A stretch of DNA of 7,647 nucleotides. Source: a virus. Its lineage: Duplodnaviria > Heunggongvirae > Uroviricota > Caudoviricetes. The stretch lies in IMG/VR virus record IMGVR_UViG_2690316243_000010. The stretch is one strand, 5' to 3'. Shown here one piece after another: positions 1-7,304 of this stretch. Position 1 is the stretch's first letter, and each line of letters begins with the position of its first letter. The position numbers and the translations under genes were made by a program. A model generated the notes under the pieces. That model was not told the DNA's origin. It was given only the letters and a program-made list of their open reading frames with translations, and did no database searches.

Positions 1-47
1 TACACTAAATCAGTAAGTTGGCAGCATCACCACAGTGCTGAACTTAA

Positions 48-3238: not shown

Positions 3239-3664
3239 TCAATGTACTGCCACAGCATTTCCTGCCGGGCCACCACGGTTCATCTGATTGAAACCGGCGA
3301 TTGCCACTGCGACAAAATCATCAGCGTCTCTCACCAGTCGTTCATGCGTCTCCACCAGTTCCCGAAAATAAGCTGAACTGTGGCTGCGCATTCGAGCCAC
3401 CAGCGGAGGTGGCATTGCCCTTTCGATCGCAGGTAACAACGCCTGAATTTTTTCAACAGCGTCAGGGGTGTCTTTATCCAGCCAACGGAAAATCTTTTGG
3501 GTGTTGAGATAAAGTGTGTTGTGCTTGCTGTCGTTATGCAGAACCGGAAACGTCATTCCCAGTTCGAAATAAACCCTGGTTATTTCAGCTGCCGGAACTT
3601 TTTCACCGTCCGGATGCGCCCAGGCTTTCATCGCCATGCGGATGTGTTCATGCTTGATTTTCAT
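3239..3664 (-). CDS. ydaT: YdaT-family protein (reported functional equivalent of CII in a CP-933P-type cryptic prophage), 141 aa
   Basis: N-terminus MKIKHEHI matches my recollection of YdaT proteins. Start ATG at 3664..3662 overlaps the stop of the upstream Cro-like gene (ATGA overlap), so it is translationally coupled. Position between the cro-like gene and the replication genes mirrors lambda cII. Confidence 0.8.
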   Translation of the reverse strand: MKIKHEHIRMAMKAWAHPDGEKVPAAEITRVYFELGMTFPVLHNDSKHNTLYLNTQKIFRWLDKDTPDAVEKIQALLPAIERAMPPPLVARMRSHSSAYFRELVETHERLVRDADDFVAVAIAGFNQMNRGGPAGNAVAVH

Positions 3665-3924
3665 GAATCAACCCCCGCCGATGGTTGTGTGTTAGCCTGA
3701 AACTCAGCAGGCAAGCCGTCAGTTGGGTTGGGGTAGGTTTTACTGTCAATCTCATGTGGGGTCACCACCCATCCCGTTGCTTCACACCAACGTAATATTT
3801 TTTCTCCTGTAAGTTTTGCACGCCCCGTTATAACGTGGCTGACCATCCCTTGGGATGCGCCAACAATCTCAGCAAATGAACTCTGGGTTATATGAAAATG
3901 ATGCAAATATTCTCCAAGATTCAT
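3661..3924 (-). CDS. ydaS: Cro-like HTH DNA-binding protein (YdaS family), about 87 aa
   Basis: Small minus-strand ORF diverging from the repressor gene. ATG at 3924..3922 is preferred over the TTG at 3951 used in the ORF track, with AGGGCGG upstream. Helix-turn-helix-like segment SSFAEIVGASQGMVSHVITGRAKL. First gene of an operon followed by ydaT and the replication genes. Confidence 0.8.
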   Translation of the reverse strand: MNLGEYLHHFHITQSSFAEIVGASQGMVSHVITGRAKLTGEKILRWCEATGWVVTPHEIDSKTYPNPTDGLPAEFQANTQPSAGVDS

Positions 3925-3960
3925 AATCCGCCCTATGTGATGTGTTACCAATGCATAATT

Positions 3961-4000
3961 AATAGCACTGTTATTTTTAAAAGTAAATAGTGATGCTATT
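3961..4000. promoter_or_regulatory. OR-like operator pair in the divergent promoter region: two 15-bp sites of the AATAGC-N3-GCTATT family
   Basis: AATAGCACTGTTATT at 3961-3975 and AATAGTGATGCTATT at 3986-4000, centres 25 bp apart, in the 111-bp gap between divergent ydaS-like and repressor starts. Same motif family as the 5098-5138 pair. Confidence 0.7.
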
Positions 4001-4035
4001 TCAAAGTGATTAGCAATCTTATTAGAATTGGATGT

Positions 4036-4536
4036 ATGAAAAGAAAATCATTGTCAGACACCGACCTCAACGCCGCCAGAAGACTGAAAGAAATCTGGAT
4101 GGCAAAGAAATCTCAGTTGGGATTGACTCAGGAACGTGCGGCGGAAATTATGGGGTTTTCAACACAAGGGGCGGTAAGTCACTACCTAAATGGTCAAACC
4201 CCACTAAACCTTGAGGCTGTTCTAAAGTTTGCTGGCTTACTGAAAGTTCCCCCTGAGTCAATCAGGCCAGACATGGTAGATTTGCTGCAAATTGCAAGGA
4301 TGTATTGTCGAGAACCACAGCAAGATAACATAGTCGCATTACCAGCAGACACAGAACAAACAGAGGATGAACTACCGTTTGCCGTAGAGCCGATGGAACG
4401 AGATTTAATCCATACGTTCAGAGCTTTTCCGAAAGAAGATCAAGAACACATGCTTCAGGAGATGAAAGATAAAAAAGAATCAATGGATCGTACGGTTGCG
4501 CGGTGGTTAGCTGCACAAAAAGGCCGTCGCGCCTAA
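4036..4536 (+). CDS. paaR2: CI-like prophage repressor lacking an S24 peptidase domain (PaaR2/RacR-type HTH regulator), about 166 aa
   Basis: ATG at 4036 (MKRKSL...) rather than the ORF-track start at 4006. The N-terminal HTH (LGLTQERAAEIMGFSTQGAVSHYLNGQTPLNLEAVLKFAGLLKVPPESI) is lambda CI/XRE-like. The roughly 100-aa C-terminal region is acidic with no Ala-Gly cleavage site or GDSM-type serine motif that I can see. Diverges from the cro-like gene and is followed by the TA pair. Symbol assigned by resemblance from memory. Confidence 0.75.
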   Translation: MKRKSLSDTDLNAARRLKEIWMAKKSQLGLTQERAAEIMGFSTQGAVSHYLNGQTPLNLEAVLKFAGLLKVPPESIRPDMVDLLQIARMYCREPQQDNIVALPADTEQTEDELPFAVEPMERDLIHTFRAFPKEDQEHMLQEMKDKKESMDRTVARWLAAQKGRRA

Positions 4537-4555
4537 ATCAGAGGAGATATGTAAA

Positions 4556-4750
4556 ATGAGTACAGTCCTTTCCCCAATGGTTTCAGAATTTGAGACAGTT
4601 GAGCAAGAAAATAGTTACAACGAATGGCTGCGGGCCAAAGTAGCAGCAAGCCTCGCGGATCCCCGCCCGGCGATTCCGCATGATGAGGTAATGGCGGAAA
4701 TGGAACAAATTATTGCCCAAATTGCTGCTGCAACTCACAGAGGTGAATAA
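4556..4750 (+). CDS. paaA2: Antitoxin of the ParE-family toxin (PaaA2-like), 64 aa
   Basis: Small acidic protein. GAGGAG Shine-Dalgarno at 4541-4546. Stop TAA overlaps the toxin start (TAATG at 4748-4752). Sits immediately upstream of a RelE/ParE-fold toxin gene. Confidence 0.8.
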   Translation: MSTVLSPMVSEFETVEQENSYNEWLRAKVAASLADPRPAIPHDEVMAEMEQIIAQIAAATHRGE

Positions 4751-5040
4751 TGTTACCCGTTTTATGGCTACCATCTGCTCGTGATGATTTGCGCCAGATC
4801 GTAGCCTACATAGCTAAAGAAAATCCCGCGGCAGCACGCAGAATGAAAATTCGAATTGAAACATCCGTTTTGCCGCTCACAGAGCATCCTTACCTGTATC
4901 CTCCAAGCGAGCGAGTTCTTGGTCTTCGTGAAATTGTAACTCATCCTAACTACATCATCCTTTACCGAGTAACAGCATCAAGCATAGAAGTAGTAAATAT
5001 TGTGCATTCTCGAAGACAGTATCCAGGCAAAAACAGTTAA
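4750..5040 (+). CDS. parE2: ParE/RelE-superfamily toxin (ParE2-like), 96 aa
   Basis: Size, 1-nt overlap with the upstream antitoxin, and sequence character (basic C-terminal region ...IVHSRRQYPGK) are typical of ParE/RelE toxins. Followed by an intrinsic terminator. Confidence 0.85.
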   Translation: MLPVLWLPSARDDLRQIVAYIAKENPAAARRMKIRIETSVLPLTEHPYLYPPSERVLGLREIVTHPNYIILYRVTASSIEVVNIVHSRRQYPGKNS

Positions 5041-5056
5041 TTATTCCCGCCGACAG

Positions 5057-5078
5057 AACCACCTTAGGGTGGTTTTTT
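5057..5078 (+). terminator. Rho-independent terminator of the repressor-TA operon
   Basis: Stem AACCACC (5057-5063), loop TTAG, stem GGTGGTT (5068-5074), followed by a T run to 5078. Begins 17 nt after the parE2-like stop. Confidence 0.8.
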
Positions 5079-5097
5079 CTTGCCCCAACAAAAAACA

Positions 5098-5138
5098 ATA
5101 GCGATGCTATTTACATCAAAAAAAATAATGATGCTATT
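5098..5138. promoter_or_regulatory. OL-like operator pair: AATAGCGATGCTATT (perfect palindromic arms) and AATAATGATGCTATT
   Basis: Sites at 5098-5112 and 5124-5138, centres 26 bp apart, immediately downstream of the terminator and upstream of the rightward small-gene operon. Same motif as the 3961-4000 pair about 1.1 kb away. Confidence 0.7.
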
Positions 5139-5319
5139 GTTTCAGGCGTCAACCCACCCCGCCCCACAGAATGCAGGGCAATACTTCGAGTTACCAGACA
5201 GTGGTCAGGGGTTAAGTAGCCAGCCCGAGGCGTAAGAACATGACGGCAGGGTTCAATCTTTAACTATGCAGCAGGTTTTTTGTTCCGCCACCCCGGCGTT
5301 AAGGGGAAATGAGGTCAGC

Positions 5320-5472
5320 ATGGATACTATCGATCTTGGCAACAACGAATCTCTGGTGTGCGGCGTGTTCCCTAACCAGGATGGAACGTTTACCGCCATG
5401 ACGTATACCAAAAGCAAAACGTTTAAAACCGAATCTGGCGCGCGTTGCTGGTTAGCCAGAAACACTGACTGA
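5320..5472 (+). CDS. Small prophage protein, YdaF-like (DUF1391-type), 50 aa
   Basis: ATG at 5320 with GAGGT Shine-Dalgarno 4 nt upstream; the longer ORF-track start at 5266 lacks a Shine-Dalgarno. Stop overlaps the next start (TGATG). Position and size match the small genes left of the repressor in Rac-type prophages. Family assignment from memory, moderate. Confidence 0.6.
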   Translation: MDTIDLGNNESLVCGVFPNQDGTFTAMTYTKSKTFKTESGARCWLARNTD

Positions 5473-5849
5473 TGAGGCTGACGATGGAATTTAAAGATTT
5501 ACCGTCTGATGTACAGAAAACAGCAGCTCATACATTGCATTCTGTGCTGCGAGAAATCGGGAAAGATATTGCAAGCGAGCCAGCAAAAGATCTGGCCCGG
5601 AAAATCAAGACCGCTTTCGTTGAGCTTTATAATGTTGGCACTGACTCTGAAACTGTCGAGACCAAGACCGTAAGTTCACCAATATTCTCACTTGAGCCAA
5701 GCGTATTATCAGGTGAAATATGCACCGAGATTTCCAGCGAACTGCTTCCGGTAATACGAGAAGCAATTCGCCGTCGCGGTTTGGATGGAAGTTATGATCA
5801 TGACGTTCTGCAAGTTCTCAGGACAATGGTGACTTCACTGGGGATTTGA
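5472..5849 (+). CDS. Hypothetical early-left protein, 121-125 aa (start at 5472 by coupling, or at 5484 with a GAGG Shine-Dalgarno)
   Basis: ORF coupled to the upstream small gene. Acidic and not Arg-rich, so not an obvious N-type antiterminator. No family recognised. Confidence 0.55.
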   Translation: MRLTMEFKDLPSDVQKTAAHTLHSVLREIGKDIASEPAKDLARKIKTAFVELYNVGTDSETVETKTVSSPIFSLEPSVLSGEICTEISSELLPVIREAIRRRGLDGSYDHDVLQVLRTMVTSLGI

Positions 5850-6018
5850 TCCCTGCGTCCTCTAAGCTTTTGATATAGCGGTCCTCCAAGAAGCGGTAAA
5901 TTTTGTCGAAATCATCTTTTCCCTCTGGTTTATTCAGAGGATTACAGGACCCGTAAGTAGCGGCATACATTTCAACCGTTTTATCAAAAATATAAGAGAC
6001 AAATTCTTCTTTAGTCAT
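5818..6018 (-). CDS. Small hypothetical protein, 66 aa, convergent with and overlapping the 3' end of the upstream + strand gene
   Basis: ATG at 6018..6016 with AAGGA Shine-Dalgarno about 8 nt upstream. Coding region visibly more AT-rich than its neighbours. Hydrophilic, no transmembrane segment. A possible -35/-10 pair (TTTAAC, 17 nt, TATCCT on the minus strand) lies about 25 nt upstream. The 5' extension in the ORF track is probably not translated. Confidence 0.5.
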   Translation of the reverse strand: MTKEEFVSYIFDKTVEMYAATYGSCNPLNKPEGKDDFDKIYRFLEDRYIKSLEDAGIKSPVKSPLS

Positions 6019-6218
6019 ATAGATTTCCTTCTTGGTTATTCGGGATAAGAAGGATACCACCTCGCCTGACGTGGTTAAAAGCAGGCACACAACGCGAAAT
6101 GACGCGGCGGTAAGTATGGCGGAGTTATTCCTTCCCCGTTGAGGACACCGGGTTGTCAGGTTGACCATACGCTTAAGTGACAACCACGCCACAACACTCC
6201 ATGTTGATTGGTACCTTT

Positions 6219-6259
6219 GGCGGCATCAGTTTCATTGCTGGCTGATGTCCGCCCTTTTT
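6219..6259 (+). terminator. Rho-independent terminator, + strand only
   Basis: 11-bp stem GGCGGCATCAG (6219-6229) pairs with CTGATG(T)CCGCC (6242-6253) with one bulged T and a 12-nt loop, followed by CTTTTT. The opposite strand has no U run after the hairpin. Confidence 0.7.
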
Positions 6260-6260
6260 A

Positions 6261-6427
6261 AAGTGAATTTTGTGATGCGGTGAATGCGGCTCAGCGCACG
6301 CGGCACAGTTAAAAAGCGATTAGTTCCCCCGTATCGGGTGGTTATGGGTTTCCCTGTATCCGGCGTTAATTGTTAACTGGTTAACGTCACCTGGAGGCAC
6401 CAGGCACCGCATCAACAAAGTTCACTT
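6261..6427. repeat. Imperfect 22-23 bp inverted repeat flanking a 122-bp repeat-rich segment
   Basis: Left arm AAGTGAATTTTGTGATGCGGTG at 6261-6282. The reverse complement of the right arm at 6405-6427 is AAGTGAACTTTGTTGATGCGGTG (21 of 23 positions, one indel). The interior holds GTTAAC-TG-GTTAAC (6372-6385), hairpin CCTGG-AGGCA-CCAGG (6390-6404) and direct repeats CCGTATCGGG / CTGTATCCGG. Confidence 0.6.
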
Positions 6428-6746
6428 CGGTGATGAAAGGAAAGAGAAAATGTTGAATGTAGCTATTGAAAACCAGAACGGGTGGAATTATAGTGCACCT
6501 GCACCTTATAAAACGGGTGCCGGGCGTGGAAACCCGAACGTTACTCGAGCGCATAGCCGCGCTGAAGCGGTTTTTTTATGCGTAATGCACAGCTCCATTC
6601 AAATTATGGTGGGATGTGCAGGGCAGTCGCAAGACTGGCCGGGTTCTCGAGTGACCGGTATTTCCACCCCTGTACGTCTCACCACCCTTATGGTCGTGGA
6701 AAACCTCGGTGGTGAGTTAATTAACTTATCACTCGAGGATGCCATC

Positions 6747-7304
6747 ATGGCTACTATCCCTGCCCTTTCTCACCCTGACGTAACCATCGAAAATGGTCGC
6801 GCTGTCACTACGTCTATTGCGATCGCAGAGTTCTTTGGCAAGCGTCACGACAATGTGTTACGTGCCATCGCAAATACTGAATGCTCACCTGAATTTAACG
6901 CCCTCAATTTTGAGGACGTCACCTACACTGACGCCAAAGGCGAAAAACGCCCGATGTACCAAATCACCAAAAACGGCTTCGTTTTCCTGGTGATGGGATT
7001 CACTGGCAAAAAAGCCGCTGCATTTAAAGAAGCCTACATTGCTGAGTTCGATCGCATGGAGGCCGAACTGCGCCAGAATAACACCCCACCCACTGACAAA
7101 ATAATTCCAGGCGATGGCCGCACCCTGGTTGTTCACTTCGACGAACGCGGCAACATCAGATTCACCGAAACCGTTCCTGATGGCGCACGGGTCTGTACCA
7201 TGGAGACTTTCCGGTTTTATCTGGAAGAACAGGGATGGACTCTTGTTAACCGGGGCGCAATTAAAAATATGACTGTAGAGCAATTACTCAAAATTCATTG
7301 TTGA
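6747..7304 (+). CDS. Rha-family phage regulatory protein (Phage_pRha domain), about 185 aa
   Basis: ATG at 6747 with GAGGA Shine-Dalgarno 7 nt upstream. Sequence block AIAEFFGKRHDNVLRAIAN...MYQITKNGFVFLVMGFTGKKAAAFKEAYIAEFDRME is characteristic of Rha/ORF6N-type phage regulators as I recall them. The in-frame upstream extension to 6450 has a possible Shine-Dalgarno but non-protein-like composition, so the start is uncertain. Confidence 0.8.
   Translation: MATIPALSHPDVTIENGRAVTTSIAIAEFFGKRHDNVLRAIANTECSPEFNALNFEDVTYTDAKGEKRPMYQITKNGFVFLVMGFTGKKAAAFKEAYIAEFDRMEAELRQNNTPPTDKIIPGDGRTLVVHFDERGNIRFTETVPDGARVCTMETFRFYLEEQGWTLVNRGAIKNMTVEQLLKIHC

Follow-up and report, generated by a model that had tools for sequence, protein, structure and literature searches.

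A small gene opposed to a dicBF-type early operon of a lambdoid prophage: half of a highly probable two-gene cassette and part of a possible noncontiguous-operon switch

What does a small open reading frame (ORF) do on the strand opposite the early-left genes of a lambdoid prophage, and does it belong there alone? This question is raised by the virus record IMGVR_UViG_2690316243_000010, from which a stretch of 7,647 nucleotides (nt), here called the window, was analysed and found to be the immunity region of a prophage of the lambdoid Qin/Rac type. The ORF lies on the minus strand (ATG at 6018-6016, stop at 5820-5818), encodes 66 amino acids (aa) and meets the preceding plus-strand gene tail-to-tail; the latter, named 'Ybl81' in UniRef, is called the partner below. 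An earlier prediction from the same DNA (the original prediction) had reported the ORF with these coordinates and this length, a good Shine-Dalgarno (SD) sequence and a 32-nt overlap with the plus-strand gene ending at 5849, all of which were confirmed (Table 1). We find that the 66-aa gene is very probably one half of a two-gene cassette which appears to be embedded in an operon of the dicBF type, and we consider a noncontiguous-operon switch, at a probability of about 45%, to be the best explanation of this arrangement.

That the ORF is a real gene is hardly in doubt. Homologues of the 66-aa protein were found at 88, 86, 71, 57 and 54% aa identity in different prophage backbones, and the ratio of nonsynonymous to synonymous substitution rates (dN/dS, Nei-Gojobori method, NG86) was 0.08-0.29 in all informative pairs of the gene. 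In the distant pairs dS is > 1, which amounts to saturation at synonymous sites, and the start, stop and length of the gene are unchanged. When the 55 codons outside the overlap were read in six frames, the ORF frame alone was observed to be open in 9/9 sequences, the other five carrying 1-10 stops, and its ratio of nonsynonymous to synonymous differences (pN/pS, 0.15-0.41) was the lowest in most pairs. The antisense frame that shares the third positions of the ORF has a low pN/pS as well, in two pairs equal to or slightly below that of the ORF frame, but contains 3-5 stops. Conservation in related prophages, the absence of which the original prediction had named as grounds for giving the gene up, is borne out by these values.

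The gene itself had been annotated before: E. coli B has it in its Qin prophage as the hypothetical protein WP_000159335.1; the protein is also VUF53565.1 in the functional phage mEp460_ev081 and matches phrog_34441 (E 2e-49), and the DNA of the gene occurs in 398/5426 complete E. coli genomes. What is new is its standing as the convergent half of a cassette, its place inside a dicBF-type operon and a strict rule of orientation. Its family is tiny. A HMMER profile search of all 1.84 billion cluster representatives gave 12 matches, 10 of them at E <= 1e-10, and these are mostly family members or their fragments together with one distant member (P0038) and two repetitive proteins. P0038, with 73 aa and from lineage L090 (L numbers denote the compared loci), is the most distant homologue (HMMER E 1.7e-11) and shows the same architecture.

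The unit that moves was delimited by blastn against L002, L007, L008, L066 and L010. In three unrelated backbones (L007, L008 and L066) the shared interval coincides exactly with window positions 5484-6093/6099, which hold the partner, the 66-aa gene and the block upstream of the latter. In the K-12-type Tritos, homology is limited to window positions 5200-5463 and 6093-6424, and 5464-6092 is absent; in K-12-type Qin the interval is ydfB-ydfC, so that the cassette substitutes for both genes, and its two proteins bear no resemblance to YdfA, YdfB or YdfC. The separate acquisition of a single moron-like gene, as first proposed, therefore has to be replaced by that of a mobile cassette of ~610 bp which includes the partner and a 75-nt block. 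The low GC content that had suggested it is real, at 40.3% for the ORF against 49.0% across the window, but the deviation is modest as 7.3% of 201-nt windows have a GC content as low or lower; the cassette as a whole stands at 43.3% and the repressor and toxin-antitoxin genes also at 44-45%.

The partner most likely starts at ATG 5484 (MEFKDL), which gives 121 aa in place of the 125 aa originally assigned, the length from a start at 5472, because the Prokaryotic Genome Annotation Pipeline (PGAP) calls this start in E. coli B and homology between phages begins exactly there. Its N-terminal ~50 residues match several PHROGs of unassigned function. Its C-terminal ~47 residues (…LPVIREAIRRRGLDGSYDHDVLQVLRTMVTSLGI) were found to be convergent with, and overlapping, the 66-aa gene in every locus with a full-length ORF, down to 54% identity. 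Among 62 viral contigs with this C-terminal domain, 56 carry the full 66-aa ORF; the remaining six comprise three IS1 insertions, L097, which ends at the same residue, and two deletions which remove window positions 5866-6147 and leave the partner intact. The length of the overlap varies, with 56 nt in L005/6, 35 nt in L090 and 197 nt in Cedecea. In the last of these (L003 ~3570-3896, minus) the bare C-terminal domain is encoded with an ATG and SD of its own and had been missed by the gene caller. The Cedecea partner lacks the usual stop after SLG, and its frame therefore stays open for 197 nt, in antisense across the entire 66-aa gene. Since Cedecea keeps the bare domain with the ORF, it seems that a domain, beyond mere overlapping codons, is retained with the ORF. 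In L090 the P0038 gene is convergent with a 63-aa gene that follows the gene in the repressor position. A profile search with the 47-aa C-terminal domain gave nothing significant, the profile being too short for the size of the database, and a search of the literature under the accession or the name Ybl81 found none.

Several disrupted copies were observed. In L070-L072, L093, L094 and L098 the 66-aa gene is interrupted by IS1 within its AT-rich 5' region, in both orientations. As L093 is 100% identical to window positions 4206-5981 and L072 to 5973-6500, these loci represent the prophage of the window itself with IS1 inserted, and a reading of L070-72 as 'truncated variants', that is as alternative alleles, was dropped because they are IS1 insertions. 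The Shigella sonnei proteins P0006 and P0007 are likewise fusions that result from IS1 insertion in the 66-aa gene. In addition, window positions 1-31 constitute a terminal inverted repeat of IS1 that matches the IS1 end of the L071/L072 junctions with 100% identity, and a run of N masks about positions 107-316.

The place of the cassette in the operon is also other than first described. The 66-aa gene had been placed at the 3' end of the early-left operon, and this was not upheld. An intrinsic terminator closes the repressor unit upstream and is followed by oL-type operators that match oR; from this it follows that the genes from ydfA onward belong to a repressor-controlled early-left operon. 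In this operon the oL operators are followed by ydfA, by the partner with the 66-aa gene in antisense behind it, and then by a DicF-like small RNA (sRNA), and no plus-strand terminator was found from 5849 to DicF at 6206-6254. With DicF downstream on the operon strand and no terminator intervening, transcripts of the operon must cross the 66-aa gene in antisense. The face-to-face transcription noted by the original prediction is thus structurally unavoidable, and the 66-aa gene is, as judged from these signals, embedded in reverse inside a dicBF-type operon and does not face the end of that operon.

The DicF of the window is full-length but divergent (38.8 bits in Rfam, under the gathering score of 48; E 8e-6) and keeps its terminator hairpin. 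In E. coli B, where DicF scores 72.5 bits, the cassette is followed by dicF, dicB and ydfD. The dicBF operon of K-12 consists of ydfA-ydfB-ydfC, a long untranslated region with dicF, and dicB-ydfD, and the 5' end of DicF is processed from a polycistronic transcript (PMC5069750). We found the K-12 dicF untranslated region not to be homologous to the cassette interval. Because a protein gene lies opposite what has been called a long untranslated region upstream of DicF, the precursor transcripts of DicF would be natural antisense RNAs of this gene. A screen for division inhibitors of UTI89 was considered and set aside, as it covers ydfABC of the K-12 type, other than the cassette.

The polarity of the cassette, which stands at the head of early prophage operons, was observed to be the same throughout the window, E. 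coli B Qin, L007, L008, L005/6, L090 and Cedecea, seven backbones in which the partner always runs along the early operon and the 66-aa gene is always opposed to it. In Cedecea the cassette is flanked by cro on one side and a CP76/cII-like gene on the other. Repeats of oR recur in the gap that precedes ydfA or the partner; this was seen for the window, L005, L006, L090 and E. coli B (L010), with 2-5 matches against ~0.01 expected. On the strength of these operator-like repeats, the early operons that carry the cassette were shown to be repressor-controlled in most backbones.

The signals from which the 66-aa gene might be expressed are located in the upstream block. The core of this block is 83% identical between the window and L005/6 whereas third codon positions are 48% identical (P ~1e-4), so that it is under constraint relative to neutral sites, and in Cedecea just GGTGRTAYCCTT is left of it, which contains the motif TGnTAnnnT. 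This motif, a candidate extended -10 element, is the sole match within 120 nt upstream of the ORF in 7/7 lineages, at -40 to -47 from the ATG, and its position is kept even in the otherwise unalignable L090 (chance ~1%). A strong SD (GAAGGA, AAAGGA, GGGAGG or GGAGGA) was found in every lineage. The plausible promoter claimed at the outset holds in part only: a sigma-70 consensus scan found none upstream of the ORF, its sole minus-strand match lying inside the ORF, and what stands is the conserved extended -10-like TGGTATCCT, which with the candidate -35 TTAACC agrees with the consensus at 8/12 positions, under the threshold of the scan. A terminator scan found no minus-strand terminator within 5200-6500.

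The same nucleotides can be read in another way, as an anti-SD UCCUUCUU (6054-6047) that pairs with the SD (6026-6033). This helix is 90.6% paired over 12 sequences, three of its pairs are altered on both sides, in roughly three independent events, and its U-G pairs are consistent with a minus-strand RNA; the folding z-scores are weak. The two readings are mutually exclusive, and that of a promoter is favoured. An inverted repeat, ACCAC-N10-GTGGT (6071-6075 and ~6057-6061), spans the candidate -35 and extended -10 and looks like an operator; no covariation was found in it, and L007 and Cedecea have it in broken form. A leader with a pseudoknot or two hairpins (GCCUG/CAGGC and ACCAC/GUGGU) was rejected for showing no covariation and only unpaired departures. 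Similarly, the upstream block was rejected as a part of the DicF precursor because it moves with the cassette into backbones that have no DicF, and a GTG-started extension of the ORF to 124 aa (5818-6192) was rejected because the portion that it adds upstream falls beyond the conserved unit and is not preserved in other contexts.

The 66-aa protein is acidic and hydrophilic, with a grand average of hydropathy (GRAVY) of -0.63 and an isoelectric point (pI) of 5.0. AlphaFold2 (AF2), run on an alignment of seven sequences, predicted a hairpin of helices H3-22 and H31-54 with a floppy C-terminal tail (mean predicted local distance difference test score, pLDDT, 83.6; predicted template modelling score, pTM, 0.71), and the product was thereby shown, at the level of a model, to be a small, acidic, cytoplasmic or soluble two-helix protein. 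This agrees with its having been called soluble-looking. Since the floppy tail is encoded opposite the conserved C-terminus of the partner, it may be the partner that imposes the conservation of this tail. The AF2 model of the partner is weak (pLDDT 54.6) and consists of two helical hairpins with a disordered linker between them. Scans of Pfam, NCBIfam and PADLOC with the ORF and the partner found nothing above threshold; in PADLOC-DB v2, with E <= 1 as the cut-off, neither the ORF nor the partner nor ydfA matched any family. The best Pfam match to the 66-aa protein was a sub-threshold Zn_ribbon_16 (E 0.04), and phrog_34441 was the only match among PHROGs. Profile searches against the sequences of solved structures gave nothing significant for the cassette proteins, and no structural neighbour of the 66-aa protein was found. 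The suggestion of a defence gene thus found no backing in PADLOC, in Pfam or NCBIfam families or among structures, and IS1-disrupted or deleted copies exist.

As the best explanation we propose the noncontiguous-operon switch mentioned above, which would work as follows. In the lysogen the repressor would hold the early promoter off, and the 66-aa gene would be transcribed from its own weak extended -10, TGGTATCCT, with a transcription start site (TSS) near 6044, and translated by means of its strong SD. Upon induction, strong early transcription would cross the 66-aa gene in antisense on the way to DicF, and this crossing may silence the gene through collision of polymerases and formation of an RNA duplex while the partner is produced. 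The two products would thereby be mutually exclusive in time. For such reciprocal expression of the 66-aa gene and the partner operon, the arrangement of signals makes the odds about even. A more speculative extension is that the C-terminal hairpin of the partner might neutralise or replace the activity of the 66-aa protein at the lytic switch. It is doubtful that the two proteins form a functional pair, as suggested by co-inheritance alone, including that of the bare C-terminal domain in Cedecea, and it is quite unlikely that the cassette is a full two-protein, switch-coupled module in which a 66-aa lysogeny effector (for example for phage exclusion or the damping of early functions) and a lytic neutraliser in the C-terminal hairpin of the partner would each mark a state that silences the other. 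Such a module, coupled through overlapping convergent transcription, would be an enterobacterial equivalent of the Tha/Ith system (see below) with inverted polarity, located in the dicBF operon of E. coli B/BL21.

Several observations count against the proposed switch. Expression of the 66-aa gene in the lysogen is something that we purely infer from sequence. The candidate promoter is weak (8/12, sub-threshold) and is accompanied by no minus-strand terminator that the scan could find; if the anti-SD/SD hairpin is real, the TSS must lie further upstream, outside the conserved block. Copies with a destroyed ORF and an intact partner occur, and co-inheritance of overlapping genes is expected from physical linkage and is no proof of a functional pair. 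The partner of L090 has no detectable homology to the C-terminal domain (BLAST E 0.47; hhalign probability 0.3%), so that at this distance the architecture alone appears to be conserved. The test for repeats shared by oR and oL was negative in L007 and L008 at the chosen threshold, and the model of the partner, at its pLDDT, is too weak for a fold search.

These points lead to the other explanations. The 66-aa gene might be a stand-alone accessory gene of the moron or superinfection-exclusion type, with a protein that by itself would act in the lysogen on the host or on incoming phages and with the partner an unrelated early gene that travels along through the overlap, and we regard this as unlikely. 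It is consistent with the slot and orientation shared with sieB in vB_EcoS-666R9, the absence of the 66-aa gene from the closely related K-12-type Qin, a GC content below that of its surroundings and an SD and conserved extended -10-like motif of its own; the lack of detectable homology of the L090 partner adds that the ORF may need no specific partner. Such a gene would fit less well with Cedecea, where the C-terminal domain of the partner is kept alone with the ORF under its own start and SD. Furthermore, there are 0 matches in PADLOC and none to SieB or another family, the missing terminator indicates that the gene is not a self-contained transcription unit, and the IS1-disrupted or deleted copies point to no strong benefit for the host. 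It is very unlikely that the minus-strand unit acts mainly as RNA, so that a convergent promoter or antisense transcript would damp leaky early-left transcription of the toxic DicF, DicB and Kil and the protein would be secondary. The convergent geometry, with terminators found on neither strand, would suit this role, as would the toxic DicF and dicB located downstream here and in E. coli B (PMC5069750) and the lambdoid precedents for antisense RNA at the 3' end of genes, OOP/cII and sas/sieB, as summarised in PMC7067206. It would leave unexplained the strong purifying selection on the aa sequence and the retention of start, stop and SD across saturated synonymous divergence, and the cassette is also present where no DicF or dicB follows (L005-L008, Cedecea and L090).

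Slightly less probable again is an addiction pair of the toxin-antitoxin type that stabilises the prophage. The two small genes are strictly co-inherited and lie in a region rich in such systems, with PaaA2/ParE immediately upstream, and the ACCAC-N10-GTGGT repeat over the candidate promoter could be an autoregulatory operator. The layout is convergent and not bicistronic, however, neither protein has toxin or antitoxin homology, neither AF2 model shows a DNA-binding fold, and the repeat is broken in two lineages and without covariation. Copies without the ORF and with an intact partner are viable, which excludes the ORF as an essential antitoxin unless the partner is silent. A chance ORF or annotation artefact antisense to the DicF precursor can be considered refuted: the ORF is short, has no known domain and falls within the region described in K-12 as a long untranslated one (PMC5069750), but its low dN/dS, a frame open in all lineages to 54% identity and the same architecture around P0038 contradict chance, and the K-12 region is not homologous to the interval in any case.

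The neighbourhood of the cassette offers some further observations. A module similar to immI of P1/P7 occupies window positions 6450-7304 (elements at 6488-6540, 6501-6577 and 6602-6689) in place of dicB-ydfD, with a C4 antisense RNA (76.7 bits), isrK (61.2 bits) and a1/b1 target sites of C4. The C4/isrK elements are located within or ahead of a 284-aa ORF of an Ash and Rha antirepressor, whose called start is probably too far upstream, and the module is also present elsewhere in L007 and Cedecea L003. Sub-threshold matches to STnc100 of Rfam (31.6-40.7 bits against a gathering score of 47) were found at window 6266-6419, L010 6565-6774 and L007 3697-3908; the match lies directly 3' of DicF, forms the dicF-dicB spacer in E. 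coli B (L010) and is adjacent to the cassette in L007, which has no DicF, and it may be a conserved spacer of prophages. On the early-right side, a YdaT-family protein takes the cII position after a Cro-like helix-turn-helix (HTH) gene (3239-3664 and 3661-3951, with a 4-nt overlap), a layout typical of the Rac/Qin type.

Table 1. Coordinates of the cassette, its expression signals and the surrounding immunity region in the window
Feature	Position	Strand	Remark
cI/DicA-like HTH repressor	4006-4536		plus-strand order
PaaA2-type antitoxin and ParE toxin pair	4556-5040		directly after the repressor, in the rexAB position
Intrinsic terminator AACCACCTTAGGGTGGTT and T run	5057-5080 (hairpin 5057-5074)	plus	closes the repressor-PaaA2-ParE unit
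oL-type operators AATAGCGATGCTATT and AATAATGATGCTATT	5097-5111 and 5124-5138		AATAG-N5-CTATT palindrome; match oR at 3985-4001
ydfA homologue (DUF1391)	5266-5472	plus	first gene of the dicBF-type operon
Mobile ~610-bp cassette	5484-6093		partner, 66-aa gene and upstream block; blastn boundaries
Convergent partner	5484-5849	plus	121 aa from ATG 5484 (most likely start); 125 aa from 5472
Coding overlap	5818-5849	both	32 nt, tail-to-tail
66-aa gene (MTKEEFVSYIFDKTVEMYAATYGSCNPLNKPEGKDDFDKIYRFLEDRYIKSLEDAGIKSPVKSPLS)	5818-6018	minus	phrog_34441 member; two-helix hairpin predicted
IS1 target site, 9 bp	5973-5981		9-bp duplication; ORF broken after codon 15 or 16
Upstream block, 75 nt	6019-6093	minus	travels with the 66-aa gene; right-hand cassette boundary
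SD AAGAAGGA	6026-6033	minus	7 nt before the ATG
Candidate extended -10 TGGTATCCT (TGnTAnnnT)	6051-6059	minus	putative; predicted TSS near 6044
Weak candidate -35 TTAACC	6073-6078	minus	spacers of 13 nt (to the extended -10 TG) and 16 nt (to TATCCT)
DicF-like sRNA	6206-6254	plus	terminator hairpin 6222-6249 and T run

If the noncontiguous-operon switch is correct, this would be the second independent case in which prophages tie an accessory function to the state of lysis or lysogeny by means of small antisense-embedded genes. Among lambdoid phages of enterobacteria it would be the first, with two tiny proteins of no known domain as its components. The reading of the dicBF operon also changes in ~7% of complete E. 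coli genomes, including the B/BL21 lineage. The proposal is easy to test because BL21 carries the cassette natively and K-12 lacks it. Should the ORF be merely another unexplained prophage ORF, the practical value would be a corrected annotation of the region.

Among known systems, sieB of Rac, lambda and P22-type prophages is the nearest in position. In early-left regions of the Rac/Qin type it fills the equivalent slot, on the opposite strand, tail-to-tail with the preceding small gene and ahead of kil or dicF. As an example, sieB of vB_EcoS-666R9 (L092; 2908-3519, minus; 203 aa) overlaps the preceding small gene by 4 nt and lies ahead of kil. The sieB-type position assigned by the original prediction is therefore correct, and the slot is prone to swaps, as the ydfB-ydfC of K-12-type Qin indicate. 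SieB is a membrane protein of ~190 aa, whereas the 66-aa protein is soluble by its GRAVY and has no sequence or profile similarity to it; in sequence, size and membrane character alike, the 66-aa protein falls outside the SieB family. To our knowledge, no obligate convergent protein partner has been described for sieB. In P22, sieB is controlled by the antisense RNA sas (as summarised in PMC7067206). When compared with morons, the cassette was found to be present or absent at the same site and to deviate in base composition, though modestly (7th percentile); a consensus scan for a promoter and terminator of its own was negative for both, and TGnTAnnnT is kept in 7/7 lineages. Type II toxin-antitoxin systems are less similar, as the genes are convergent, match no toxin or antitoxin family and tolerate loss of the ORF with an intact partner.

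The K-12 Qin dicBF operon shares with the window a DicA-like repressor, ydfA (DUF1391), the DicF flank and DicF. It differs in carrying ydfB and ydfC on the operon strand where the window has the cassette, and dicB-ydfD where the window has the C4/isrK and Ash-Rha antirepressor module. The OOP/cII pair of lambda is similar in that an early gene of a repressor-controlled operon has its 3' end covered by a convergent, overlapping transcript (as summarised in PMC7067206). OOP, however, is a short RNA that is non-coding and has a terminator of its own, while the 66-aa gene encodes a protein under purifying selection and no terminator was found for it.

A documented parallel to the proposed switch is Tha/Ith in prophages of Staphylococcus aureus, where a small overlapping antisense gene encodes an inhibitor of a defence protein encoded by the operon and each of the two states excludes the other by convergent transcription (Rostol et al. 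2024, PMC11087260). In both systems a small gene is antisense to, and overlaps, a prophage operon. The operon of Tha/Ith is the lysogenic cI operon, with ith on in the lytic cycle, whereas the operon here is the repressed early-lytic one, so that the polarity would be inverted and the antisense gene would be the one active in lysogeny. The cassette also has no HEPN or other effector domain or homology, and its two proteins are both tiny and predicted to be helical. At the level of sequence, the arrangement nevertheless conforms to a noncontiguous operon, in that the operon transcript would span a gene on the opposite strand.

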